Positions 3,775 to 63,880 of a DNA stretch of 64,000 bases are shown one piece after another. Within the stretch, counting starts at the first letter, position 1, and every line of letters starts with the position of its first letter. The position numbers and the translations under genes were made by a program. Under the pieces are notes generated by a model. That model was not told where the DNA came from. It was given only the letters and a program-made list of their open reading frames with translations, and made no database searches. Source of the DNA: an uncultured Alphaproteobacteria bacterium (lineage in GTDB: Bacteria; Pseudomonadota; Alphaproteobacteria; M2410); contig CBFDBJ010000003.1 in assembly GCA_965603015.1 (NCBI GenBank), forward strand, positions 8,013 through 72,012. Direction: 5' to 3'.

Positions 3775-3850
3775 AGAGCGTTTCCTGTTTCCTCGGGTTC
3801 CTCTTCCAGTTCGAGGCCGAGGGACCCTCAAACTTTCTATCTCTCATTTT

Positions 3851-3931
3851 GTCATTGCCGGGCTTGACCCGGTAATCCAGTGGCACCGAATTCCGACGCT
3901 TCTGGATACCCGGATCAAGTCCGGGTATGAC
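3851..3931. repeat. REP-like palindromic element, subfamily A (copy 1)
   Basis: Left arm is gtcattgccgggcttgacccggtaatccag. A near reverse-complement right arm is ctggatacccggatcaagtccgggtatgac. Same architecture as the copies at 22736 and 25402. Confidence 0.8.
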
Positions 3932-4120
3932 ATGGCGTTTGTTGGTCGTTTTGGCGTAACACACTCAAAACAAAGAGGTATCGCACCAGTGGGCGAAAAC
4001 TTCGCTGACTGGTGTTGACCCCCGAACTCCAACGATCGGCGGCGGAAGAACAAGTGGTTCTACCGGAATTGATGCGGTTTCTAGGGGGTTAGAGGAAGAG
4101 AGTCAAGGGTTACGGCAGCC

Positions 4121-4540: not shown

Positions 4541-4660
4541 CTGTCGTCCCGGGCAAGCAACGCGCGACCCGGGATCTCGGGGCAAGGTCCCCGAACCGGT
4601 CGTGGATCCTGTTTGTAGCACAATCGTGCCCGGAGGTCCCGGCTCAAGGCCGGGACGACA
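4541..4660. repeat. REP-like palindromic element, subfamily B (copy 1)
   Basis: Reads tgtcgtcccgggcaagcaacgcgcgacccgggatctcggggcaag ... gcccggaggtcccggctcaaggccgggacgaca. Composite nested palindrome. Confidence 0.8.
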
Positions 4661-5877: not shown

Positions 5878-5998
5878 TGTCATCCTCGACGAGCGGAGCG
5901 AGATCGGGGATCCACACCATAAAACCTTCATCTCGCGTGATGATAGCCTTCAGGTATGGATCCCCGATTCCGCCTTCGGCGGCCCGAGGATGACAACA
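5878..5998. repeat. REP-like palindromic element, subfamily C (copy 1)
   Basis: Reads ctgtcatcctcgacgagcggagcgagatcggggatccacacc ... ggtatggatccccgattccgccttcggcggcccgaggatgacaaca. Termini match the other subfamilies. Confidence 0.8.
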
Positions 5999-6010: not shown

Positions 6011-8065
6011 TTAATTGCGGCCAAGTTGACGCCATAGATAGGTGTATTGCAAGGCGTAATGCCTTGCGTGCTGGGCCATGTTAACGCCGCGGCCGTGGCC
6101 GCCTTCGGTGTTCTCGTAATAGAGCGGAGCGTGGCCCTGCTCTTTCATGCGGGCCATCATCTTGCGGGCGTGGCCGGGATGGACGCGGTCGTCTTTGGTG
6201 GACGTGTAAAAGAAGACGCGCGGGTAGGTCTTGCCCTCATGGACATTTTGATAGGGCGAATATTTTTCTATCCAGGCGCGCTCTTCGGGAATATCCGGGT
6301 CGCCATATTCTCCCATCCAGCTGGCTCCGGCGAGCAGCTTGTTATAGCGCAGCATATCGAGCAGCGGGACATCGCACAGCACCGCATTAAAAAGCTCCGG
6401 GTTCTGAGTAAAGGTTGCGCCGACGAGAAGCCCGCCGTTTGAGCCGCCGGAGATGCCAAGGTGGCGCGGCGCTGTGATCTTGCGGGCGATGAGATCGCGC
6501 GCCACGGCTGCGAAGTCATCAAACGCCTTCTGGCGATTTTCTTTCAGCGCCGCCTCATGCCACTTCGGGCCAAACTCGCCGCCGCCCCGGATATTGGCCT
6601 GCACATAGACACCGCCGGATTCCAGCCAGCCTTTGCCCGTTATCGGCATATAGGCGGGCGGTCTGGAGATTTGAAAGCCGCCATAGGCATCAAGAACTGT
6701 CGGGTTAAGGCCGTTCAGGGCCATGTCCTCGCGGGCGACAACAAAGTAGGGAATGAGTTCGCCGTCGGTGCTGGCGACTTCGAACTGCCAGACCTCAAGC
6801 CCGTCCGTGTCAAACCGCTGTGGCAGGGACATGACAGGCCGGCAGGTCGCTCCGCCCTTTGCCAGATGATACAGCGTCGGGGGCGTGAGGAAATTTTCAT
6901 AGGAGATAAAGGCGTCATCGGTGCCGGAACTGGTGGCAAGGGACCCAATCGCGCCGTTGCCGGGCATGTCGACGGCGGTTTCTGTCCAAGCCCCCTCCCG
7001 GGTGTCCGAGTTAAATTCAAAATGACTGACCTTGCCGATGACATTATCGAGGGTCACGAGATAGACGCCGGATTTGGCGATGCCGCCGAAATCGATGGCC
7101 GAGCGCGAACCCGGTTCATGGACGAGGGCAACACGGGAGATGGCGCCATCCGTCAGAAAATCATCCAGGCTAAAGGAAACGAGCGCGCCAGCGTTCCAGA
7201 TCTTGCCACCGACCTGCCAGTCTTCGCGTAAAAGCACAATCGCTTGTTGCCCGTGGAATCCGTAGAAGTCAAATTTGGCGGGAAGTGGAACCGGGACGGT
7301 CTGCCCATCGACATGAAAGCTGAGTTCATAGGTAAAGAATGTCACCCACCGATTGAGCACGCCGACAAATTTCGTGCCAACAAGGTGGCTTGACGGGAAC
7401 ATGCCGGTGTCGTCGACACTGCCTTCAACAAGGATTTGCGCATCGGCGATATCAGTGCCGCGCTGCCACAATTTTGCAAACCGTCCGTAGCCGGATGTTG
7501 TCAGGCTACCCTCGCCAAAATCGGTGCGGACAAGAAGCGTATCGGGGCCCATCCAGGCGACAACAGATTTTGCCTCGGGCAGGTAGAAACCACCGTCAAC
7601 AAACTGGCGTGACATAACATCAAACTCGCGCACGACCGAGGCGTCCTTGCCGCCGCGCGAGAGCCGAATGAGGGCGCGGGTGTGATCGGGGGCGCGCGAT
7701 GTTGCGTCTTGCCAGACCCAATTTTCATCCTCGGCTGCGGCCAGCGCATCAAGATCAAGCAGGGTCTCCCAGACCGGCTCACCTGCGGCGTAGGTTTTGA
7801 GCGGCGCGCGGCGCCAGATCCCGCGCACATGGGCAGCATCCTGCCAGAAATTATAGACAAAGGCGCCGTCCCGCCCGGCCCGAGGGGTGCCATAGGGAAT
7901 GCGTGCCTCGTCGTTGAGGACCTCAAGAGCGGCGGCCTCGATGACCTCGTAGCGCGGGTCGGCGGAGAGCTCTTCAAGCGTCGCCTCACTCTCGGCGGCA
8001 GCCCATTTCAGGGCTTCGGCGCCCTCAACCTCTTCAAGCCAAAGCCAGGGATCTTCTGTCGACAT
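6011..8065 (-). CDS. prolyl oligopeptidase family serine peptidase (S9A)
   Basis: 684 aa. N-terminal beta-propeller region, then a C-terminal alpha/beta hydrolase with GISGGSNGGLLVG (GxSxGG) and the catalytic-region pattern ...DDRVHPGHARKM... Confidence 0.85.
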   Translation of the reverse strand: MSTEDPWLWLEEVEGAEALKWAAAESEATLEELSADPRYEVIEAAALEVLNDEARIPYGTPRAGRDGAFVYNFWQDAAHVRGIWRRAPLKTYAAGEPVWETLLDLDALAAAEDENWVWQDATSRAPDHTRALIRLSRGGKDASVVREFDVMSRQFVDGGFYLPEAKSVVAWMGPDTLLVRTDFGEGSLTTSGYGRFAKLWQRGTDIADAQILVEGSVDDTGMFPSSHLVGTKFVGVLNRWVTFFTYELSFHVDGQTVPVPLPAKFDFYGFHGQQAIVLLREDWQVGGKIWNAGALVSFSLDDFLTDGAISRVALVHEPGSRSAIDFGGIAKSGVYLVTLDNVIGKVSHFEFNSDTREGAWTETAVDMPGNGAIGSLATSSGTDDAFISYENFLTPPTLYHLAKGGATCRPVMSLPQRFDTDGLEVWQFEVASTDGELIPYFVVAREDMALNGLNPTVLDAYGGFQISRPPAYMPITGKGWLESGGVYVQANIRGGGEFGPKWHEAALKENRQKAFDDFAAVARDLIARKITAPRHLGISGGSNGGLLVGATFTQNPELFNAVLCDVPLLDMLRYNKLLAGASWMGEYGDPDIPEERAWIEKYSPYQNVHEGKTYPRVFFYTSTKDDRVHPGHARKMMARMKEQGHAPLYYENTEGGHGRGVNMAQHARHYALQYTYLWRQLGRN

Positions 8066-8072
8066 GGGGGGG

Positions 8073-8927
8073 CTACTTTCCTATTACGCGAGCGCGGTAG
8101 TTACGCACGGCATGGGCGACCGTCGAGGGATGCACCTCGAAGTGCGCCGCGATATCAACCTGGCGGTGACCGCCGTCAAGATGGGCGGCGGCCATGGCTT
8201 CGCCGCGGCCTGTCCAGGTCCGCTGATAGTGGTCAAGCGAGTGTTTGGGTTCACGCGGCGCACGGCGACCTGATGCAAGAGCCTCAAGGACTTTCGGATC
8301 CATATCCGGCTCCTGACGCAGCAGCTTGAGGCCGGGCGGTGTTTTGGCCAGCTCGCGCTCAAGCCCGGGGATATTGTCGATGCCATCGTTTACATATTTG
8401 CAAAACGCCGCACGGCCATCCGTATCCTGACTTTTGAAATCCGAAAGAATTATCTCGCGGCCGTGCCACGACGGCACCGCTGCGGCGCCCGGCAAGAAGG
8501 TGGCGTAGTTTGACCATTGCCAGTCTTCAGGCTTTTGGGTGAGGCCGGCCTTGACCGGGTTGAGCGCGATGTAGCGCAGCAACGCCATGAGGTAGCGCTC
8601 CTCCTCCACGAGGAAAGATTTGTAGCGGCCCTGAAAAAGATGCCCGACATTCTCGTGCCGCCAGTTGGCCGATTGCGAGAAGCGCGAATTGAGACGACGC
8701 ATGCCGCTGGCCAGATTGGCCTCCTTCGTGCGCAGCAGCAGATGATAGTGGTTCGGCATCAGGCAATATGACAGGACCGACCAGGACAGCTCGTCGGCGA
8801 TCTCGCCGAGCAGGGTCAGGAATTTGCGGTAGTCCGAGGCGTCGAGGAAGATCTCCTGTTTGCGATTGCCGCGGGCGATGATGTGGTGGGTCGCACCGGC
8901 GAAATCTGCACGTAAGGGACGGGGCAT
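8073..8927 (-). CDS. IS200/IS605-fold HuH (Y1) transposase-like protein, RAYT-like, with a C-terminal DnaA-domain-IV-like HTH
   Basis: COG1943-type signature HHIIARGNRKQEIF...YCLMPNHYHLLL...GHLFQGRYKSFLVEEERYLMALLRYIALNPVKAGL (HuH = HYH, catalytic Y region). C-terminal part ...MAAAHLDGGHRQVDIAAHFEVHPSTVAHAVRNYR resembles the DnaA C-terminal HTH. Start reset to the ATG at 8927, preceded by GGAGG. Confidence 0.7.
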   Translation of the reverse strand: MPRPLRADFAGATHHIIARGNRKQEIFLDASDYRKFLTLLGEIADELSWSVLSYCLMPNHYHLLLRTKEANLASGMRRLNSRFSQSANWRHENVGHLFQGRYKSFLVEEERYLMALLRYIALNPVKAGLTQKPEDWQWSNYATFLPGAAAVPSWHGREIILSDFKSQDTDGRAAFCKYVNDGIDNIPGLERELAKTPPGLKLLRQEPDMDPKVLEALASGRRAPREPKHSLDHYQRTWTGRGEAMAAAHLDGGHRQVDIAAHFEVHPSTVAHAVRNYRARVIGK

Positions 8928-8957
8928 GGGGAGGTCCTCCTTCGGGTTTTCCCCCTG

Positions 8958-9001
8958 ATACCATGATTTGGGGTCAGGCACCATATGGGAAATCATGGTA
9001 T
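8958..9001. promoter_or_regulatory. nested palindrome in the divergent RAYT-like/dapF intergenic region
   Basis: ataccatgattt - 20 nt - aaatcatggtat gives a 12-bp perfect stem. The loop carries the palindromic ccatatgg. Confidence 0.35.
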
Positions 9002-9037
9002 GGTGCGGAGGGGCGGCTGGCCCTATAAGCTTGGGCC

Positions 9038-9943
9038 ATGTCCAAATCCTCTTCACATAAGTCGCGGCCGTTCGTCAAAATGCACGGGCTGGGCAATGAT
9101 TTTATCATTATCGATGCCCGCACGGAGCCGTTTGCGCTGGGCGAAGCTGCTGTCCGCCTGCTCGCCGACCGCAAGCTCGGCGTCGGCTGTGATCAGCTCA
9201 TCGTGATGGAACCACGGCGCGGCCAGGGCGACACCTATATGCGGATCTGGAACCCCGATGGCGGCGAGGTCGAGGCCTGCGGCAATGCCACGCGCTGTCT
9301 CGGCCGGATCCTGATGGAGGAAAGCGGCAAGGCCGAAGCCGTCATCGAGACCGTCGCGGGGGATCTGAAGGCAACTTCGGGCGGACCCGGCATTGTCACC
9401 GTCGATATGGTCACCGTTGATATGGGTAGGCCAAAATTCGACTGGCAGGACATCCCCTTGCGCGAGAGCATGGACACGCGGCTGATCGACTATATGGCGG
9501 TGCCGGGGACGGCCTTCGGGCTGACCGGACCGAGCGCCGTCAATATCGGCAATCCGCACTGTGTGTTTTTTGTCGAGGATGTGCACGCGCATGACCTTCA
9601 GGCGCTGGGCCCCGGCATTGAAAATCACATGCTGTTCCCCGAGCGCACCAATGTGGGTTTTGCCGAAGTTCGAGGCGCGGGCAAAATTCGCCTGCGCGTC
9701 TGGGAACGCGGCACCGGAGAGACGCAGGCCTGCGGCACCGGGGCTTGCGCTGCAGCGGTGTGCGCCATGCGCCAGAGCCTGACCGACCGCACGGTTGATG
9801 TCGAGCTCGACGGCGGAACCTTGACCATTGAATGGGATGCGGCCACGGACCATATCTTCATGACCGGCCCCGCGACGCTTGCCTATCGCGGCGAGCTTGC
9901 ACCTGAACTTATTGACGAGCTGCTGAAATTAGCGACCGCATGA
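9038..9943 (+). CDS. dapF: diaminopimelate epimerase
   Basis: N-terminal MHGLGNDFIIID and NPHCVFFVED motifs. 301 aa. Confidence 0.9.
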   Translation: MSKSSSHKSRPFVKMHGLGNDFIIIDARTEPFALGEAAVRLLADRKLGVGCDQLIVMEPRRGQGDTYMRIWNPDGGEVEACGNATRCLGRILMEESGKAEAVIETVAGDLKATSGGPGIVTVDMVTVDMGRPKFDWQDIPLRESMDTRLIDYMAVPGTAFGLTGPSAVNIGNPHCVFFVEDVHAHDLQALGPGIENHMLFPERTNVGFAEVRGAGKIRLRVWERGTGETQACGTGACAAAVCAMRQSLTDRTVDVELDGGTLTIEWDAATDHIFMTGPATLAYRGELAPELIDELLKLATA

Positions 9944-11271: not shown

Positions 11272-12386
11272 GTGAAGAGCCGACAGAAAAGAAACGGTTT
11301 GGCTGGCTACGCGGCAAGGACAAGGCCGCAGCGGTCGAAACCACCGCGACAACCGAACCGGTTGAAGAGCCGGTTGCGGAGCGTGCCCCTCCCCTTGAGA
11401 CTTCTGACACGGCGGAGCCCGAGGCGCCGAAAAAGAAATCTTTCTTTCAGCGCCTGAAATCCGGCCTCGCCCGATCATCCAGCTCGCTGTCTGAAGGCAT
11501 CACCGGGATTTTCACCAAGGCAAAGCTCGATGCCAGTACACTCGAGGAGCTTGAAGATCTGCTGATCATGACCGACCTCGGCGTCGAGACGGTGACCGCG
11601 ATCACGGCGAAACTGGCAAAGGACCGGTTCGACAAGGAAATCTCCAGCGAAGAGATCAAACAGTTTGTCGCTGATGAAATCACAGCCATCCTTGATCCGC
11701 TGGCCAGGCCGTTTGAGGTCAATGCCTCCCACAAGCCTCACGTGGTCCTGATGGTCGGGGTCAACGGCACCGGCAAAACGACGACACTGGGCAAGATGGC
11801 GGCGCGCGAAATCGCTTCAGGGCATAAAGTGATGATCGCGGCCTGCGATACGTTCCGGGCCGCCGCCACCGAACAACTCAAGGTTTGGGGGGAGCGCTCC
11901 GGTGCGCCGGTGATTTCAGCCGCCCCCGGGGCCGACGCCGCCGGGCTTGCCTTTGACGCGCTGAAAAAGGCCAGGGATGAGAATGTTGACGTTCTGTTTA
12001 TCGATACGGCAGGACGTTTGCAGAACAAGACAGAACTGATGGCGGAACTTGAGAAGATCATCCGCGTGATCAAGAAGCAGGATGAAAGCGCGCCGCACTC
12101 GGTGCTTCTGGTGCTTGATGCCACAACCGGCCAGAACGCGCTCGGCCAGGTTGAAGTCTTCAAGGCGGTCACCGATGTCACCGGCCTTGTCATGACAAAG
12201 CTCGACGGGACGGCCCGCGGCGGCATTCTGGTGGCAGTTGCCGCCAAATATGGCCTGCCGCTGCATGCCATTGGCGTTGGCGAGGATATTGATGACTTCC
12301 AGCCGTTCGAGGCGGCGGCTTTTTCGGCTGCGCTGGTCGGGCTGGACACGGATCTTAACCAGGATGCAATTGACGCCGAGGCATAA
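11268..12386 (+). CDS. ftsY: signal recognition particle receptor FtsY
   Basis: Acidic N-terminal region. NG domain with GVNGTGKTTTLGKMA, DTAGR and TKLDGTARGG. Confidence 0.9.
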   Translation: MSEEPTEKKRFGWLRGKDKAAAVETTATTEPVEEPVAERAPPLETSDTAEPEAPKKKSFFQRLKSGLARSSSSLSEGITGIFTKAKLDASTLEELEDLLIMTDLGVETVTAITAKLAKDRFDKEISSEEIKQFVADEITAILDPLARPFEVNASHKPHVVLMVGVNGTGKTTTLGKMAAREIASGHKVMIAACDTFRAAATEQLKVWGERSGAPVISAAPGADAAGLAFDALKKARDENVDVLFIDTAGRLQNKTELMAELEKIIRVIKKQDESAPHSVLLVLDATTGQNALGQVEVFKAVTDVTGLVMTKLDGTARGGILVAVAAKYGLPLHAIGVGEDIDDFQPFEAAAFSAALVGLDTDLNQDAIDAEA

Positions 12387-12404
12387 TCAGGCCAGGTAGA
12401 GATC

Positions 12405-12432
12405 ACGCCGTTTGGGCGTCTTTGTTTGCAAT
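12405..12432 (+). terminator. possible weak intrinsic terminator after ftsY
   Basis: acgcc-gtttg-ggcgt followed by ctttgtttg. Short stem, so weak. Confidence 0.25.
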
Positions 12433-12452
12433 GAAAGAAGTTCGCAAGGCCC

Positions 12453-13076
12453 ATGACCCAACGTATGCGTACAGCCCTTGATTTCGGACCCTTGCTGGCC
12501 TTTTTGGCTGCTTTTTTGCTGTTTGACATATTTGTTGCCACAGCCGCGGTGATGGTGGCCTCGTTCATCTCGCTGGCGATTCACTACAAGATTACCAGGA
12601 AGATCGCCCCCATTCCCGCCTTTACGTGCGTGGTGATGCTCATCATGGGTGGACTAACACTCTATCTCAGGAACGAAACGTTTTTGATGATGAAGCCGAC
12701 GATCGTCTATGTCTTCATGGGGGCAGGGCTGATTTTCAGCGCCCGGACTGGCAAAAACATTCTTGGCACAGCCATGGGCCCCTATATGAAGATGCCGCCA
12801 GAGGGATGGAAAATCTTTCTGACACGGTTTGGGGTCTTTTGCTTTTTTGCAGCCGGGCTCAACGAAGTCTTGCGTCACCTGGTGCAGATTGAAATTCTAA
12901 CCCTGAAGAATTGGGTCACTTTCAAGGTCTTCGGCTTTACTGCCCTCTTCTTTCTTTTTTCCATGTCGCAGGCGCCGCTTCTGTCGAAGTACCTTGAACT
13001 TGAGGAAGACGAAAGTCAGGACCCCGACACAGCTTTGGCTAGCGCTGAAAATGGAACTGAAACTTCGGGTCAGTGA
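12453..13076 (+). CDS. yciB: intracellular septation protein A (YciB/IspZ family inner membrane protein)
   Basis: 207 aa, 5 TM, YciB-like pattern. Conserved position after ftsY. Confidence 0.8.
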   Translation: MTQRMRTALDFGPLLAFLAAFLLFDIFVATAAVMVASFISLAIHYKITRKIAPIPAFTCVVMLIMGGLTLYLRNETFLMMKPTIVYVFMGAGLIFSARTGKNILGTAMGPYMKMPPEGWKIFLTRFGVFCFFAAGLNEVLRHLVQIEILTLKNWVTFKVFGFTALFFLFSMSQAPLLSKYLELEEDESQDPDTALASAENGTETSGQ

Positions 13077-13626
13077 GATCCGGGTTACCAAAGGGAGCGA
13101 TCACGTCCCTGCCCGCCACTTCCCGGTCATGCACCAGCGCCCAGACGACGGACGGAAAGGCCAGCTCCTGCCAGGGAATGTCCTCATATCTGACGAGATC
13201 GACCTCGAGGCTTTCAAAACCGGGTGAAAGATCCGGGTCAAGCAACCGGGCGCGGTACATCAGCTGGACCTGACTGATGTGGGGCACATCATAAAGTGCC
13301 AGCAAATCGCGGATCGCGATTTGAGCGTTCGCCTCCTCCATGGCCTCACGTTTTGCCCCGTTTTCTGCGGTCTCGCGCTCCTCCAGGAAGCCTGCTGGCA
13401 GGGTCCAGAAACCCTTGCGTGGCTCAATGGCGCGCCGGGCCAGGACAATCTTGTCCTCCCACTGAATCACCGAGCCAACGACAATTTTTGGATTAACGTA
13501 GTGAACCCATCCGCACGTGTCGCAAACCTGACGCTCTTTATCGTCCCCGTCAGGAACTTTCGAAGAGAAATCAAACCCGCGTGTCAGCGGATTGTCCGTG
13601 CCCGCCTTTGTGGTCTTGTCCGCCAT
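13039..13626 (-). CDS. NUDIX hydrolase with N-terminal zinc-ribbon
   Basis: CDTCGWVHYVNP zinc ribbon. Nudix box GFLEERETAENGAKREAMEEANA. Start reset to the internal ATG (MADKTTKAG...) at about 13626. Convergent 38-bp overlap with yciB. Confidence 0.8.
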   Translation of the reverse strand: MADKTTKAGTDNPLTRGFDFSSKVPDGDDKERQVCDTCGWVHYVNPKIVVGSVIQWEDKIVLARRAIEPRKGFWTLPAGFLEERETAENGAKREAMEEANAQIAIRDLLALYDVPHISQVQLMYRARLLDPDLSPGFESLEVDLVRYEDIPWQELAFPSVVWALVHDREVAGRDVIAPFGNPDLTDPKFQFHFQR

Positions 13627-13872
13627 CACTTGTATCTTTCCATAAAGCAAACTATATTGTCCGTGGGTTGACTGTCCGATCACCCCGTTTGTACTTCCAG
13701 TGAGGAAATTCGCATACGAACGGACAAAAAGCGCTTAAAATCAGGAAGTTTTCACCCCCCGATTCATTGCATACGGATAAATTCACGTTATCTTTACCTC
13801 GTTCGAATCAATGTACATCACATGATTACAAACTCTGATAACAACTCTCTCTAACAAACCGAGGAAATTAAA

Positions 13873-14514
13873 ATGGCTGGTCCCAAATTTGATCTGTCTG
13901 ATTCACCTGGCCACCTGCTGCGCCGGGCTCAACAATATTCATTTGATCTCTTTTCGAAAGAGATCGGCAACAGCAGACTGACACCGCGCCAGTTCGCCGT
14001 TCTGCTCACGGTACAACAAAACGAAGGCCTCAGCCAAACGGATCTTGTCAAGCGCACCGGTATTGACCGCTCGACGCTGGCTGACATGATCTCCCGGCTG
14101 ATCAGCCGCAAGCTTCTCTCCCGCACCCGGACCAAGGCCGATGCGCGGGCCAATTCGGTCAAAATCACGGCCTCAGGTGCGAAAGAGCTCTCTTCGCATG
14201 CCGCCAAGGTCAAATCGGCTGAAGCCAAGATCATGGGCCCGCTTGCCGCTTCCAAGCGGAAAGACTTCATGGCCGCGCTGAAGGCTATTGCTGCCGCCGC
14301 TGACGCTCTTGAAGCTGCTGCTGCCAAACCTGCCAAGAAGGCCGCCAAGAAGAAAGCTGCGCCAAAGAAAAAGGCTGCAAAGAAGAAGGTTGCCAAGAAG
14401 AAAACAGCCAAAAAAGCTGCCAAGAAGAAGGCCGCTCCCAAAAAGGCTGCGAAAAAGAAGGCGGCACCAAAGAAAAAGGCTGCAAAGAAGAAAGCTGCCA
14501 AGAAGAAGAGATAG
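13873..14514 (+). CDS. MarR-family transcriptional regulator fused to a histone H1-like Lys/Ala-rich (AKKAA-repeat) C-terminal tail
   Basis: N-terminal 140 aa show the MarR winged-HTH pattern (LTPRQFAVLLTVQQNEGLSQTDLVKRTGIDRSTLADMISRLISRKLLSRTRTKADAR). The last ~65 aa are AKKAAKKKAAPKKKAAKKKVAKKK... repeats. Confidence 0.8.
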   Translation: MAGPKFDLSDSPGHLLRRAQQYSFDLFSKEIGNSRLTPRQFAVLLTVQQNEGLSQTDLVKRTGIDRSTLADMISRLISRKLLSRTRTKADARANSVKITASGAKELSSHAAKVKSAEAKIMGPLAASKRKDFMAALKAIAAAADALEAAAAKPAKKAAKKKAAPKKKAAKKKVAKKKTAKKAAKKKAAPKKAAKKKAAPKKKAAKKKAAKKKR

Positions 14515-22694: not shown

Positions 22695-22735
22695 AATACG
22701 AGTGTATACCACACTTTCTCCACCATTTTAGATCT

Positions 22736-22821
22736 GTCATCCCCGGGCTTGACCCGGGGATCCAGAGCTTCACCCTCCGAGCCAACCGCTTCTGGATTAC
22801 CGGGTCAAGCCCGGCAATGAC
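22736..22821. repeat. REP-like palindromic element, subfamily A (copy 2)
   Basis: gtcatccccgggcttgacccggggatccag ... ctggattaccgggtcaagcccggcaatgac. Confidence 0.8.
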
Positions 22822-22836
22822 AAAGGGAGAGAGTAT

Positions 22837-23228: not shown

Positions 23229-23354
23229 GTTGTCGTCCTCGGGCCGACCGAAGGGAGGAACCGGGGATCCATACCTGAGAACTGTCACCAAGCGGGATGC
23301 GCGTTCTCGGGTATGGATCCCCGATCAGCGCCCCGGCGCTATCGAGGACGACAT
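23229..23354. repeat. REP-like palindromic element, subfamily C (copy 2)
   Basis: tgttgtcgtcctcgggccgaccgaagggaggaaccggggatccatacc ... gggtatggatccccgatcagcgccccggcgctatcgaggacgacat. Confidence 0.8.
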
Positions 23355-24074: not shown

Positions 24075-24157
24075 ACTCGAGATGCTGCACCATGGATGAG
24101 GCAACTTCAAGGCATGGCCAGGGCTGGTATATGAGAGATACCTCTGACCTCGGGTTT

Positions 24158-24277
24158 GTCATCCCGGACAAGCAAAGCGCGATCCGGGATCTCGGGGCAA
24201 GACGCGGGGGTCAACTCAAATCACAACATGGAGCACCATCTTGCCCTGAGGCCCCGGATCAAGTCCGGGGCGACAAG
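24158..24277. repeat. REP-like palindromic element, subfamily B (copy 3)
   Basis: tgtcatcccggacaagcaaagcgcgatccgggatctcggggcaag ... cttgccctgaggccccggatcaagtccggggcgacaag. Confidence 0.8.
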
Positions 24278-25378: not shown

Positions 25379-25401
25379 CCCTTCCCTCTCACCCCTTCTT
25401 T

Positions 25402-25473
25402 GTCATTACCGGACTTGATCCGGTAATCCAGAAGGCGACGCACTGGATACCCGGGTCAAGCCCGGGCATGACA
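25402..25473. repeat. REP-like palindromic element, subfamily A (copy 3)
   Basis: gtcattaccggacttgatccggtaatccag ... ctggatacccgggtcaagcccgggcatgac. Confidence 0.8.
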
Positions 25474-59238: not shown

Positions 59239-61412
59239 GCCAGATCCCTGATTTCACACAAGTTGCACTTGAGGCAGATGCTTCCCCGGACGCGGCGAAG
59301 TGGGCGCAAGCTGCAGAGGCTATACGCGGCGAGGAGGCCCTCACATGGGAGACGCCGGAGGGCATTCCGGTCAAGGCGCTCTACACCGCCGAGGACGTGA
59401 AAGGCCTTGATTACCTCGACACATATCCCGGTTTTGCGCCGTTTATTCGCGGGCCCTACCCGACGATGTATGCCACGCGGCCATGGACGATCCGGCAATA
59501 TGCCGGGTTTTCGACCGCCGAGGACTCCAATGCGTTCTACCGGCGCAATCTGGCGGCGGGACAAAAAGGCCTGTCGGTGGCCTTCGATCTTGCGACCCAC
59601 CGCGGTTATGATTCCGATCATCCGCGCGTTGCCGGCGATGTCGGCATGGCGGGGGTTGCGATCGATTCCATCTACGACATGCGCACATTGTTTGCGGGCA
59701 TTCCGCTCGACGAGATGTCCGTCTCGATGACCATGAACGGCGCGGTGCTTCCCATACTCGCGCTTTATATTGTCGCGGCAGAAGAACAGGGCGTGCCCCC
59801 GGAAAAACTGTCCGGCACGATTCAGAACGATATTCTGAAAGAGTTCATGGTGCGCAATACCTATATTTATCCGCCGACGCCCTCGATGCGGATTATCTCG
59901 GACATCTTTGCCTATACCTCAAAGAACATGCCGAAATATAATTCGATCTCGATCTCCGGCTATCACATGCAGGAAGCCGGGGCGAGCGCGGACCTGGAAC
60001 TGGCCTATACGCTGGCGGATGGTCTGGAATATGTCCGCGCCGGGATCAAGACCGGCCTTGATGTCGATGCCTTTGCGCCGCGCCTGTCCTTCTTCTGGGC
60101 CATTGGCATGAACTTCTTCATGGAGATCGCCAAGATGCGCGCGGCGCGGCTGATCTGGGCGAAGATGATCCACGAGTTCAATCCGAAGAATGAGAAATCA
60201 CTGTCGCTGCGCACCCATTGCCAGACCTCCGGATGGTCGCTCACGGCGCAGGATGTCTACAATAATGTAACGCGCACAGCCATCGAGGCCATGGCGGCGA
60301 CGCAGGGCCACACCCAGTCGCTGCATACCAATGCGCTTGATGAAGCGCTCGCCCTGCCGACGGATTTCTCGGCGCGGATCGCACGCAACACGCAGATCCT
60401 GATCCAGCAGGAAACCGGCACCTGCCGCATTATCGACCCGTGGGCGGGCTCATACTATGTTGAGAAGCTGACCCACGATCTTGCCGCCCGCGCCCTCGTC
60501 CACATCAATGAAGTCGAAGAAATGGGCGGCATGGCCAAAGCCATCGAGGCCGGTATCCCGAAGATGCGGATCGAGGAAGCCGCGGCGAAAACCCAGGCCC
60601 GGATCGACACCGGGACCCAGACCGTGGTCGGCGTCAATAAATATCAGGTGAGCGACGATGCTGTGCTTGACGTGCGCAAGGTGGATAATTCCGCGGTGCG
60701 GGCGCAACAGATTGCCTCGCTCAAAAAACTGCGCGCCTCGCGCGACCAGCCGGCCTGCGATGCAGCGCTGGAGGCCCTGACAAGGGCAGCGGCGAGCGGC
60801 GACGGCAATCTGCTGGCGCTGGGCGTCGATGCGGCGCGCGCCATGGCCTCGGTCGGAGAGATTTCCGATGCGCTGGAAAAGGTCTATGGTCGTCACCGGT
60901 CCGATATCAAAACCATCAGCGGGGTCTATGCACAAGCCGTGAACAAGAATTCAAAAAATATCAAACGGGTCCGAGACCTCGTCGAAAGTTTCGAGACCCA
61001 TGAGGGTCGCCGCCCGCGCATTCTCGTTGCCAAGATGGGCCAGGACGGCCACGACCGCGGCCAGAAGGTGATCGCCACGGCGTTTGCCGATCTCGGCTTT
61101 GATGTCGATATCGGCCCCCTGTTCCAGACCCCCGAGGAAGTGGCGCAGCAGGCGGTTGAAAACGATGTCCACATGGTCGGTGCCTCGTCGCTCGCCGCCG
61201 GACACCTGACACTCATCCCGGCGCTGAAAAAGGCGCTGACCGCGCTCGGCCGTGACGACATCATGATCGTCGTCGGCGGCGTCATCCCGTCGCAGGATTT
61301 TGACGCGCTCTATGCAGCGGGCGCGAAGGCGATCTTCCCGCCGGGTACGGTGATTGCCGACGCGGCGGTGAAGCTGCTGGAAGATTTAAGCGCGGCGCTC
61401 GGGGTGGAGTGA
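59235..61412 (+). CDS. mutB: methylmalonyl-CoA mutase large (alpha) subunit
   Basis: 725 aa. Substrate-binding barrel. C-terminal B12-binding domain with DxHxxG motif [17 protein letters not shown], ending ...[15 protein letters not shown]. Confidence 0.95.
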
Positions 61413-61954: not shown

Positions 61955-62104
61955 TCGGCGGCGGCGACGGCGGCGGCATCCCGCCCCAAGACTTCGACGA
62001 GCTCTATGCCTCGGGCGCCAAAGCGATTTTCCCTCCGGGCACGGTGATTGCCGATGCGGCGGTGAAGCTGCTGGAAGATTTGAGTGCGGAGTTGGGAGTG
62101 GAGT
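61955..62104 (+). pseudogene. orphan diverged copy of the mutB 3-prime end (encodes [51 protein letters not shown])
   Basis: About 80 percent nucleotide identity to mutB 61283..61412, including synonymous differences. Ends in a TAA at the position homologous to the mutB stop. Confidence 0.75.
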
Positions 62105-63788: not shown

Positions 63789-63815
63789 GGCGGAGCCAGA
63801 GGCTTGAGGCCACCT

Positions 63816-63880
63816 TCCCTCCGGGTACGGTGATTGCCGTCGCGGCGGTCAAGCTGCTGGAGGATTTGAGTGCGGAGGCC
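63816..63880 (+). other. third, truncated copy of the mutB 3-prime end segment
   Basis: ttccctccgggtacggtgattgccgtcgcggcggtcaagctgctggaggatttgagtgcggag encodes [21 protein letters not shown]. It breaks off at gcggag/gcctttaa. Confidence 0.7.

Follow-up and report, generated by a model that had tools for sequence, protein, structure and literature searches.

Within the 64-kb stretch of DNA analysed here (the window), which holds several REP-like families, one gene encodes a RAYT-like HuH/Y1 protein that carries a fused helix-turn-helix (HTH) at its C-terminus. The question raised by this locus is which DNA the protein serves: the REPs of its own genome, which an earlier note on this DNA had suggested it might bind or mobilise, a replication origin, or sequences belonging to its own family. 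The same architecture has been published as TnpAY1 subclass 2.1 (Quentin, Siguier, Chandler, Fichant 2018, PMC6006769), with RAYT group 1 (Bertels et al. 2017, PMC5581495) and TIRYT/TIRtron (Di Nocera et al. 2013, PMC3733652) as equivalents, and the published definition comprises a tail resembling Bac_DnaA_C, HTH_23 or HTH_28, the absence of REPs, and ends in which GGGGWSAS is common. The Y1-HTH fusion is not new, having been described in 2013 and 2018, and we consider it likely that the window protein is a further member of this subclass, with a HuH/Y1 core for the nicking and joining of single-stranded DNA (ssDNA) and a helical tail with a short DnaA-IV-like HTH at its end. The features of the locus are collected in Table 1.

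Table 1. Features of the Y1 locus, by position in the window
Feature	Position	Strand	Basis or remark
S9 prolyl-oligopeptidase-family gene	6011..8065	-	starts 7 nt after the Y1 stop codon
Y1/HuH protein with C-terminal HTH, CDS	8073..8927	-	ORF list and translation; homologues; dN/dS
C-terminal HTH (residues 231-283), probable short form of a DnaA-domain-IV-related module	8079..8237	-	HTH_28/HTH_23, hhalign, fold
Proximal tail and linker	8238..8477	-	W138-S139, helices 157-195; low-confidence linker residues 196-230 (AF2)
Y1 (IS200-like) catalytic core, residues 1-150	8478..8927	-	Pfam, Foldseek, pLDDT
Tyrosine motif Y119-I-A-L-N-P	8556..8573	-	Tyr codon 8571-8573; aligned to YIYINP of TnpAREP
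HuH motif N59-H60-Y61-H62	8742..8753	-	read from the sequence; aligned to HMH of 4er8
Shine-Dalgarno AAGGAGG	8936..8942	-	8 nt before the ATG; AAGGAG/AAAGGAG kept in orthologues
Conserved upstream block, remnant of the putative cognate hairpin	8955..9006	.	invariant columns, 7 orthologous loci
Perfect 12-bp inverted repeat around the tip	8958-8969 / 8990-9001	.	12/12 complementary, 20-nt loop
Tip GGGGTCAG (CTGACCCC on the gene strand)	8970..8977	+	50 nt before the ATG; GGGGWSAS inverted
Junction (approximate) of the 48-nt deletion	8980..8981	.	between direct repeats CCATGATTTCCCATATGG and CCATGATTTGCTGTATGG; alignments A1, A6
dapF, divergent neighbour marking the other side of the insertion site	9038..9943	+	synteny
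Canonical family end			sequence GGGGTCAGGTCTTGCATTTTGCA

A HuH/Y1 core with a helical tail

The gene reads from an ATG at 8927 to a TAG at 8073-8075 and specifies 284 amino acids (ORF list, translation); the ORF given in the earlier note is real, but its length of 285 residues is not. A longer frame opening with a GTG at 9056 was ruled out as the true start, because homologues begin with MxRP, which forms the N-terminus in all of them, and because AAGGAGG stands at 8936-8942. A homologue search returned 2175 homologues of the protein.

With a HuH motif and a catalytic tyrosine on an IS200-like fold, the protein belongs to the HuH/Y1 transposase superfamily (Pfam Y1_Tnp, E=1.8e-12). The core was modelled at a pLDDT >90 (AF2), and its top match in Foldseek is TnpAREP (4er8, E=1.9e-8), the matches to 4er8, 2a6m and 2xo6 ranging from E=2e-8 to 4e-5. 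Among the NCBIfam models, REP_Tyr_transpos scored 80.0 bits (cut-off 80) and the IS200 model NF033573 scored 13 bits (cut-off 55). Residues H60, H62, Y119, N123 and P124 are invariant among 84 homologues, and the core carries GHLFQGRYK and R118-Y119-IALNP as additional motifs. PADLOC gave no match to the gene, and PHROGs gave only a weak match, to a family without assigned function. Pfam, Foldseek and the AF2 model together bear out the fusion of a RAYT-like HuH/Y1 protein to a C-terminal HTH, as had been read from the letters in the earlier note.

Assignment to subclass 2.1 follows the published features of the group. The motif YIALNP has the form Y-x3-NP that distinguishes TnpAY1 class 2 from enzymes with Y-x3-Q, and NHYH, GHLFQG and YIALNP agree with the subclass signature NH[YF]H, W[EQ]/FQ, Y[IV]xLNP in the Table 1 of that publication. 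Subclass 2.1 proteins are long, with an 'SS' proximal tail and a distal HTH, and we found the same here (284 aa, W138-S139, HTH_28/HTH_23), with no REP adjoining the gene. W138 and S139 are almost invariant among homologues, SN standing for SS, and the proximal tail is the counterpart of the 'SS' proximal tail of the subclass. RAYT group 1 has been reported to be rare in Alphaproteobacteria. The closest named relative of the window locus (L085) is an alphaproteobacterial MAG.

The C-terminal extension, put at about 100 residues in the earlier note, is present but comprises ~135, and the resemblance of its HTH to DnaA appears real but indirect, running via the long-form tails of sister proteins. 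In the AF2 model the HTH consists of three helices (241-250, 256-263 and 267-283). Bac_DnaA_C (PF08299), which had been expected of the tail, gave no match to the whole protein at E<=1 in Pfam and is matched by only 4 of 84 homologues; the best Pfam matches of the tail, HTH_28 (E=7e-4) and HTH_23 (E=4e-3), are both sub-threshold. A PDB search with a profile of the whole family did not have DnaA among its matches, and a profile of the short tails (A4) matched the HTHs of sigma region 4, LacI and DeoR, DnaA being absent from the PDB matches at E<=10. However, hhalign matched the short tail A4 to the long tail A5 of sister proteins (99.1%, E=4.9e-19), and the long-tail profile in turn matched DnaA domain IV in the PDB at E=5.3e-10. 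A fold search with the window HTH gave zero matches at E<=1e-3; among the HTH folds listed, the highest TMq belonged to E. coli DnaA domain IV (1j1v; TM 0.56, rmsd 3.1 A, prob 0.97), a match that is not significant (E=0.79). As part of the overall explanation that we favour, the short HTH would probably derive from a DnaA-domain-IV-like module.

Family ends and the upstream palindrome

Canonical relatives are compact units whose left end (GGGGTCAGGTCTTG) precedes the ATG by ~45 nt and recurs, inverted, at the stop codon or across it. In distant homologue loci a forward tip lay within 150 nt upstream of the gene in 58 of 78 cases, with a mode of -44 to -46, and an inverted tip lay at the stop codon in 40 of 76, 17 of these having a TGA stop inside the tip; the background frequency of the tip is 0.058 per kb. 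Canonical bracketing by both ends was seen in 33 distant loci, and a Shine-Dalgarno sequence in none of 38 canonical members. The window protein belongs to a sub-clade (bootstrap 100/100) whose genes are preceded by both tips, which are able to form a 60-130-nt ssDNA hairpin; ssDNA folding of the relatives' two-tip regions gave z = -3.6 to -4.5.

Upstream of the window gene, the intergenic DNA around the block at 8955-9006 is not alignable among seven orthologous loci. The block includes the 12-bp palindrome recorded in the earlier note (8958..9001), within which an 8-nt pair is nested (8978-8985 / 8999-9006). By a rough estimate the chance of a perfect 12-bp inverted repeat in 64 kb is not very low, and we take the palindrome to be more than chance because the block is conserved among orthologues with near-saturated synonymous sites. 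GGGGWSAS is not enriched across the window (13 observed against 16 expected), and the argument for the tip therefore rests on its position and conservation. According to alignments A1 and A6, a 48-nt deletion in the window's species took out the spacer together with the distal tip GGGGTCAGACAC. Because the outgroups L085 and L087 keep both tips, the state with the deletion is the derived one, and the deletion allele is found in all four orthologues with >90% identity. In comparison with L003, L001 and L004, the inverted repeat is the outer part of an ancestral long inverted repeat, and the palindrome is the residue of a family-specific hairpin after the deletion. The palindrome is present as first described, but the label 'distinct' does not suit a remnant of the gene's putative cognate element.

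A search of the DNA 3' of the stop codon turned up no right-end inverted repeat, and a CCCCCCC in that region was rejected as a vestige of TGACCCC; close orthologues carry TAATCAAC there. The 64-kb window gave neither a further copy of the upstream block or tip nor another cognate hairpin. In JGI metagenomes an exact-pattern scan for the block returned zero matches, Rfam has no family for the upstream element, a sigma-70 scan of the gene strand found no promoter, and searching the literature by sequence string yielded nothing but irrelevant matches to primers.

Hairpins that have the same core but no gene occur commonly in metagenomes, and some are identical dispersed copies. Tentatively, such GGGGTCAGRC-cored hairpins might stand to subclass 2.1 proteins as REPs and REPINs stand to RAYTs, widespread and made and maintained in trans, in which case the window sub-clade, with its gene beside one hairpin, might represent a REPtron-like domesticated state whose HTH recognises the conserved core. 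We offer this as a possibility that is more doubtful than probable; if true, a domesticated REPtron-like state would concern the largest and least understood RAYT group.

Insertion and vertical inheritance of the locus

The Y1 gene with its hairpin was inserted between dapF and the S9 gene, at a site that is empty in more distant relatives: in L211 and L213 dapF adjoins the S9 gene without a Y1 gene. These empty sites could in principle be losses instead of the ancestral state. A 12-nt match, ATCAGGGGGAAA, is common to the empty site of L211 and the window. The Y1 locus is syntenic in seven assemblies, at dS up to about 1.4, and dN/dS among syntenic orthologues is 0.11-0.16 in core and tail alike. 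Since its insertion, the gene has been inherited vertically, under purifying selection and, within the 64-kb window, as a single copy; the search for additional copies proposed in the earlier note found no second Y1 gene in that stretch. All orthologues have the S9 gene directly downstream on the same strand except L210, which has an insertion of ~480 bp, and the Y1-S9 arrangement is repeated in L001-L004 and L209; the S9 peptidase gene is probably co-transcribed with the Y1 gene. The closest named assembly carrying an orthologue is GCA_030614785.1. A scan of genome contigs found no close relative, the best match having ~40% identity (48% over a partial match).

Possible roles and comparison with known systems

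By analogy with related enzymes, the HTH would bind the double-stranded GGGGTCAG-core at the gene's own 5' end, where binding might tether the enzyme or autoregulate the operon, and the Y1 core would nick and rejoin the hairpin strand once this strand is single-stranded, in the manner of TnpAREP acting on REPs. In the window lineage the unit presumably no longer moves. Selection on the protein persists though half of its presumed substrate hairpin is deleted, such that a role as a regulator, or another host role, fits at least as well as that of a nuclease acting on the hairpin.

The proposal that the protein is a RAYT binding or mobilising the REP families of this genome draws on a REP_Tyr_transpos score exactly at the cut-off, on TnpAREP as the closest fold and on the several REP-like families in the window. 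However, no REP flanks the gene, as the earlier note had itself observed, the nearest REP-like repeat (5905-5968) lying beyond the next gene. The REP cores of the window (3858-25451) are unrelated in sequence to the upstream block, the conserved adjoining sequence is GGGGTCAG-tipped rather than a CCGGGCTTGACCCGG REP core, and ~20 kb of orthologous contigs bearing the gene contain no such core. Subclass 2.1 is documented as not associated with REPs, and publications and our locus survey tie it to GGGGTCAG-tipped ends; we therefore abandon this proposal as very unlikely. We also hold it to be quite improbable that the gene is a still autonomous, active mobile element (a TIRtron) sitting here by chance. 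Its catalytic residues are intact, the site is empty in relatives and the gene was therefore inserted once, and the ends of the family give gene-less multi-copy derivatives, yet a right end is absent from the stop codon onwards, a deletion has removed half of the 5' hairpin, the position is unchanged across the seven assemblies despite the dS reached among them, and the 64 kb contain neither a second copy nor another cognate hairpin.

Alternatively, the protein could be a domesticated transcription factor, with an HTH that represses or activates the S9 operon via the upstream block and a Y1 core kept for ssDNA binding or oligomerisation and not for catalysis. In every orthologue other than L210 the gene immediately precedes the S9 gene on the same strand; this position, the conservation of the upstream block, purifying selection on the tail as strong as on the core, and persistence of the gene after one hairpin arm was lost would all fit such a role. 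We nonetheless regard it as unlikely: none of 84 homologues, the window's included, departs from the HuH histidines or the tyrosine, which argues that catalysis is still selected, and no partner gene is conserved outside the narrow lineage. Finally, the DnaA-like HTH might direct the enzyme to DnaA boxes, the origin of replication or the replication fork. The recognition helix HPSTVAHAVRNY seems similar to DHTTVLHACRKI of E. coli DnaA. Long-form tails match DnaA domain IV, and the possibility has been raised for subclass 2.1 by Quentin et al. (PMC6006769). The short form, however, is without a DnaA match, the adjoining GGGGTCAG sequence is unlike the DnaA box TTWTNCACA, as Quentin et al. (PMC6006769) also note, and as a conserved DNA partner the family's own ends are the obvious choice, which leaves origin targeting extremely unlikely.

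Membership in subclass 2.1 is the reading we prefer, and the finding is real but largely ordinary, a further member of a described family. Publications from 2013-2018 already report the fusion, the DnaA-like tail and the absence of REPs, and the locus alone matters little. It is a clean natural example of an element becoming a resident gene, offering a dated insertion with empty sites, selection on both domains, one lost end and an eroded hairpin. It also lends itself to simple tests of the HTH and the Y1 core, with one protein, a single conserved DNA block of 50 nt, and natural variants that have or lack the second hairpin arm; what the HTH and Y1 core do is a question for the largest RAYT group.

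Sub-group 2.1.2 of the subclass has in common with the window protein NHYH, FQ, Y-I-x-L-NP, a proximal tail with a conserved serine, an HTH_23/HTH_28-scoring distal HTH apparently related to Bac_DnaA_C, a low copy number, no REP nearby, and GGGGWSAS adjoining the gene. In contrast to the leaderless layout of canonical 2.1 members, the window gene has a Shine-Dalgarno leader, is fixed at one chromosomal site and is probably part of an operon. TIRtrons carry their gene within long terminal inverted repeats, many with GGGGWSAS, whereas the window gene is not bracketed; its sub-clade has both tips upstream as a hairpin, and the window itself has lost one. DnaA domain IV (Bac_DnaA_C; PDB 1j1v, 1l8q, 3pvp) is matched significantly by sequence by long-form sister tails, and the window HTH aligns to its last three helices. 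The window domain is without the first helices and the basic loop region and without a direct Pfam or PDB sequence match; it is attached to a nuclease and not to an AAA+ initiator, and the conserved DNA adjoining its gene is not a DnaA box.

The TnpA enzymes of IS200/IS605 elements (IS608, ISDra2, IS200) have the same HuH/Y1 fold and, like the window protein, act or are presumed to act on single-stranded hairpin DNA, and the 5' stem-loops of IS200 insulate and regulate tnpA. These enzymes have Y-x3-Q, ~130-150 aa and no HTH, unlike the 284-aa window protein with its HTH, and their elements have directly oriented subterminal hairpins and occur in many identical copies, whereas the window has one copy. 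E. coli TnpAREP has ~165 aa and no HTH tail, and its cognate DNA, GTAG-tagged REP hairpins, flanks the gene on either side and is present in hundreds of dispersed copies. The window gene lacks the REP flanks and dispersed family of REPtrons and canonical RAYTs (subclasses 2.2 and 2.5); its putative cognate DNA is an inverted repeat tipped with GGGGTCAG, of which the 64 kb contain no dispersed copies. The E. coli TnpAREP/RAYT and its REPtron (PDB 4er8) are reportedly the subject of work by Ton-Hoang in 2012 and Messing in 2012. TnpAREP has the same Y-x3-NP HuH/Y1 core, is the best structural match of the window protein and, like the window gene, is single-copy, vertically inherited and adjoined by what is, or appears to be, cognate palindromic DNA.

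A Y1 nuclease with a C-terminal helix-turn-helix

The open reading frame to which the earlier note assigned 285 residues is real and encodes a protein of 284. A longer ORF from a GTG at 9056 was excluded because homologues all begin at MxRP and a strong Shine-Dalgarno (SD) sequence, AAGGAGG, lies 8 nt before the ATG. The protein's catalytic motifs are N59-H60-Y61-H62 (HuH) and Y119-IALNP (tyrosine), and it matches Pfam Y1_Tnp (E=1.8e-12). Against NCBIfam models it reached 80.0 bits for 'REP-associated tyrosine transposase', a score equal to that model's cut-off, and 13 bits for IS200. E. coli TnpAREP (PDB 4er8) was the top match in a PDB sequence search and also ranked first in Foldseek (E=1.9e-8), followed by IS608, ISDra2 and IS200 transposases, when we used an AlphaFold model built from 84 homologues (pLDDT 88). 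The core of this model is confident and its tail helical, ending in three helices at 241-283. The original reading of a Y1 nuclease with a helix-turn-helix (HTH) was correct; the C-terminal extension comprises ~135 residues rather than the ~100 first estimated.

The proposed likeness of this HTH to DnaA domain IV appears to hold through longer relatives and not by a direct match. Bac_DnaA_C had no Pfam match in the window protein, whose tail best matches HTH_28 and HTH_23, both below threshold. Among the 84 homologues, tails matched HTH_23 in 55, HTH_28 in 38, sigma-70 region 4 in ~25 and Bac_DnaA_C in only 4. Homologue tails split into a short type, which includes the window protein, and a long type. 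The long-type profile (A5) matched DnaA domain IV in the PDB (2hcb/1l8q, E=5.3e-10; 3pvp, 6e-5; 1j1v, 0.02), and the short-type profile (A4) matched generic HTHs (sigma region 4, LacI, DeoR, MntR) and no DnaA. The two profiles align with 99.1% probability (E=4.9e-19), mapping the last ~45 residues of the window protein onto the HTH portion of the DnaA-like module. Modelled separately (pLDDT 81), the tail had no significant PDB match; among the matches listed, the highest TMq, 0.56, belonged to E. coli DnaA domain IV (1j1v; rmsd 3.1 Å, probability 0.97, non-significant). Because A5 matches DnaA domain IV, A4 aligns to A5 and 1j1v leads in TMq, we conclude that the C-terminal domain is an HTH, in all likelihood a shortened relative of a DnaA-domain-IV-like module. 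Quentin et al. 2018 (PMC6006769) drew the same conclusion on the DnaA-related HTH.

In that work, Quentin, Siguier, Chandler and Fichant defined TnpAY1 subclass 2.1, the second largest subclass, which comprises long proteins with a Bac_DnaA_C-, HTH_23- or HTH_28-like C-terminal extension, genes without REP-like sequences nearby, and the motifs NH[YF]H, W[EQ] or FQ, Y[IV]xLNP and a proximal tail 'SS' (PMC6006769). NHYH, FQ, YIALNP and W-S-N in the window protein conform to this signature, and the protein belongs to the subclass. The same authors identify subclass 2.1 with two earlier groupings. One is the TIRYTs (Di Nocera et al. 2013), in which terminal inverted repeats with a common GGGGWSAS bracket the gene (PMC3733652); the other, matching for 291 of 292 sequences, is group 1 of the RAYTs (Bertels et al. 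2017), described as widespread, rare in Alphaproteobacteria and more IS-like than any other RAYT group (PMC5581495). Our literature search found no functional study of subclass 2.1.

Features of the Y1 locus and repeats in the window
Feature	Window positions	Strand	Remark
Y1 gene	ATG at 8927 to TAG at 8073-8075	minus	284 aa
Palindrome arms	8958-8969 / 8990-9001		12/12 paired
Tip motif GGGGTCAG in palindrome loop	8970-8977	plus	
GGTATCAGGGGGAAAACCC	8941-8955		
REP-like family 1, CCGGGCTTGACCCGG core	3848-3932, 22733-22822, 24246-24276, 25399-25473		often inverted pairs
Further REP-like families	4542-4586 / 24157-24201; 5905-5968 / 23262-23325		
Coding tandem repeat	14315-14507		15-nt phase
Mutually similar segments	61268-61410, 61962-62104, 63807-63875		84-90% identical

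Family ends and the upstream palindrome

The palindrome upstream of the gene, with fully paired arms, is accompanied by a nested 8-nt pair, and the tip in its loop reads CTGACCCC on the gene strand, 50 nt before the ATG. We inspected the flanks of 80 homologue loci (33-48% identity, many phyla). Of 78 usable loci, 58 have the extended tip GGGTCRNDTCT in forward orientation no more than 150 nt upstream, its positions peaking sharply at -44 to -46; of 76 loci, 40 have its inverse at or just past the stop codon. Both occur in 33 loci, the background frequency being 0.058 per kb. Because of this position and frequency, the GGGGTCAG-tipped end appears to be the family's cognate DNA, one tip of which lies inside the window palindrome. 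In the 38 canonical loci (L006-L082) the left end carries a -35-like TCTTGN; 33 of them have a TANNNT 5-13 nt ahead of the ATG, and none has an SD. The canonical unit is therefore apparently leaderless and transcribed from a promoter within its own end repeat.

In 17 of 76 distant loci (e.g. L023, L033, L043, L059) the TGA stop lies within the right terminal repeat (CAAGACCTGACCCC), so that element end and gene end coincide. Short tandem tip arrays outside both ends of canonical units (L011, L019, L024, L064, L066, L203; for example CTGACCCCTTGACCCTCTGACCCGACCCCTTGACCCGACCCC downstream, with GGGGTCA repeats mirrored upstream) may be traces left by repeated nicking and joining, or sites preferred as targets.

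A metagenome scan for GGGGTCAGRC-N35-65-GYCTGACCCC returned at least 120 matches, and a Y1 gene adjoins only one among those listed. Complementarity in the listed hairpins extends a mean of 12 nt inward past the 10-nt core, often outward too, and the matches are real hairpins; one arm, in locus L130, is GGGGTCAGGCACCAAATGGGACAT vs GGGGTCAGGCACCATATGGGAAAT in the window. Di Nocera et al. 2013 (PMC3733652) reported 'moderately abundant TIR families', with which these hairpins agree, and the result shows the tip to be a conserved core of gene-less elements. Locus L135 has two identical 75-bp gene-less copies (1739-1795, 6468-6524) 4.7 kb apart in unrelated flanks, and L203 has three related ones with the same tips within 1.7 kb (12188-13850).

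Insertion and decay at the dapF-S9 locus

The syntenic orthologues L001-L004 (74-88% protein identity) have the divergent dapF upstream and, directly downstream, an S9 peptidase gene, as in the window, and carry two inverted copies upstream of the Y1 gene, TATGGGGTCAGACAC ... GTGTCTGACCCCATA. The nearest outgroups, P0012 (an alphaproteobacterial MAG) and P0011, lie in other genomic contexts and have the same layout, with the forward tip at about -100 and the inverted one at -28 or -42; the stop codon has no tip. Neighbour-joining of 82 family proteins united the window lineage, P0011 and P0012 (six proteins) in 100/100 bootstraps. Folded as single-stranded DNA, two-tip segments form long hairpins (z-scores -4.5, -4.2 and -3.6); the window remnant gives only -2.0. 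The window and three other assemblies more than 90% identical, GCA_030614785.1 among them, lack 48 nt, one tip plus spacer, between two imperfect direct repeats. This deletion is the derived state, since the outgroups retain both tips. The nested palindrome, present as previously described, is therefore not a 'distinct' structure but the outer portion of a longer ancestral inverted repeat, a remnant of the family's tip element.

Relatives L211 and L213 have no Y1 gene between dapF and the S9 peptidase gene (orthologues at 72% in L211 and 55% in L213, a 3.5-Mb genome); both retain the order ftsY-mtaB-like-dapF, and the gap between dapF and the peptidase gene that it faces is 121 or 218 nt. The simplest reading is a single insertion into the dapF-S9 intergenic region, then vertical descent. 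Among four orthologues dN/dS is 0.11-0.16 (dS 0.6-1.4), equally low in core and tail; both are intact in the window protein and under selection. In most orthologues the Y1 stop overlaps the peptidase start or precedes it by 7 to 17 nt. The sequence record indicates insertion and then fixation of the Y1 gene, and erosion of the hairpin.

In L210, an orthologue more than 90% identical, the Y1 and peptidase genes are separated by a ~480-bp insertion (2355-2837) with an ORF of 125 aa in the opposite orientation. The empty site of L211 (3380-3500) contains GAATCAGGGGGAAATATC, and GGTATCAGGGGGAAAACCC stands just 3' of the window palindrome on the gene strand; their 12-nt match (chance ~1e-3) may go back to old intergenic DNA, be a footprint or have arisen by chance. 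JGI sample 3300082554 yields both L211 and L087, a sub-clade Y1 gene between GST and YjbR genes; if these share one genome, related hosts have received the sub-clade unit at more than one site.

Candidate function and relation to known systems

The biochemistry of TnpAREP and IS608 is established and serves as an analogy for the Y1 core, which would nick and rejoin single-stranded hairpin DNA; the HTH may bind the conserved core as duplex DNA, which would tether the enzyme or let it regulate its own operon. The cognate tip DNA adjoins the gene. The alternative that the protein mobilises the window's REPs is less probable: the REP-like families, of which there are at least three, lie elsewhere in the window; as the earlier note observed, the gene's flanks contain no REP, and none of the families occurs in ~20 kb of relatives' orthologous contigs. 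That proposed link is unsupported, and the subclass 2.1 literature also speaks against it. Two other window repeats are a coding repeat rich in GCC/AAG/AAA codons, whose Ala/Lys-rich, AAKKAAKK-like product is of the kind typical for histone-H1-like or basic repeat proteins, and three segments at spacings of 694 and 1786 nt, which suggest tandem paralogous genes.

A still-active transposon is likewise less probable: the synteny, the lack of a right end and the deletion all contradict it; within the window there is no second Y1 gene, nor a further copy of the upstream block or of the GGGGTCA...TGACCCC hairpin. A pure regulator is possible, but invariant catalytic residues make it the weaker reading, and targeting of a DnaA box or origin, also less favoured, gains no support from the short HTH or the adjacent DNA.

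The window protein is a further member of a published subclass, and the fusion itself is not new. The 38 canonical loci lack an SD, whereas the window's sub-clade has one. Our results may go modestly beyond published accounts in the layout of this sub-clade, with both tips upstream as a hairpin, in a dated insertion with known empty sites, and in the abundance of gene-less GGGGTCAG-core hairpins.
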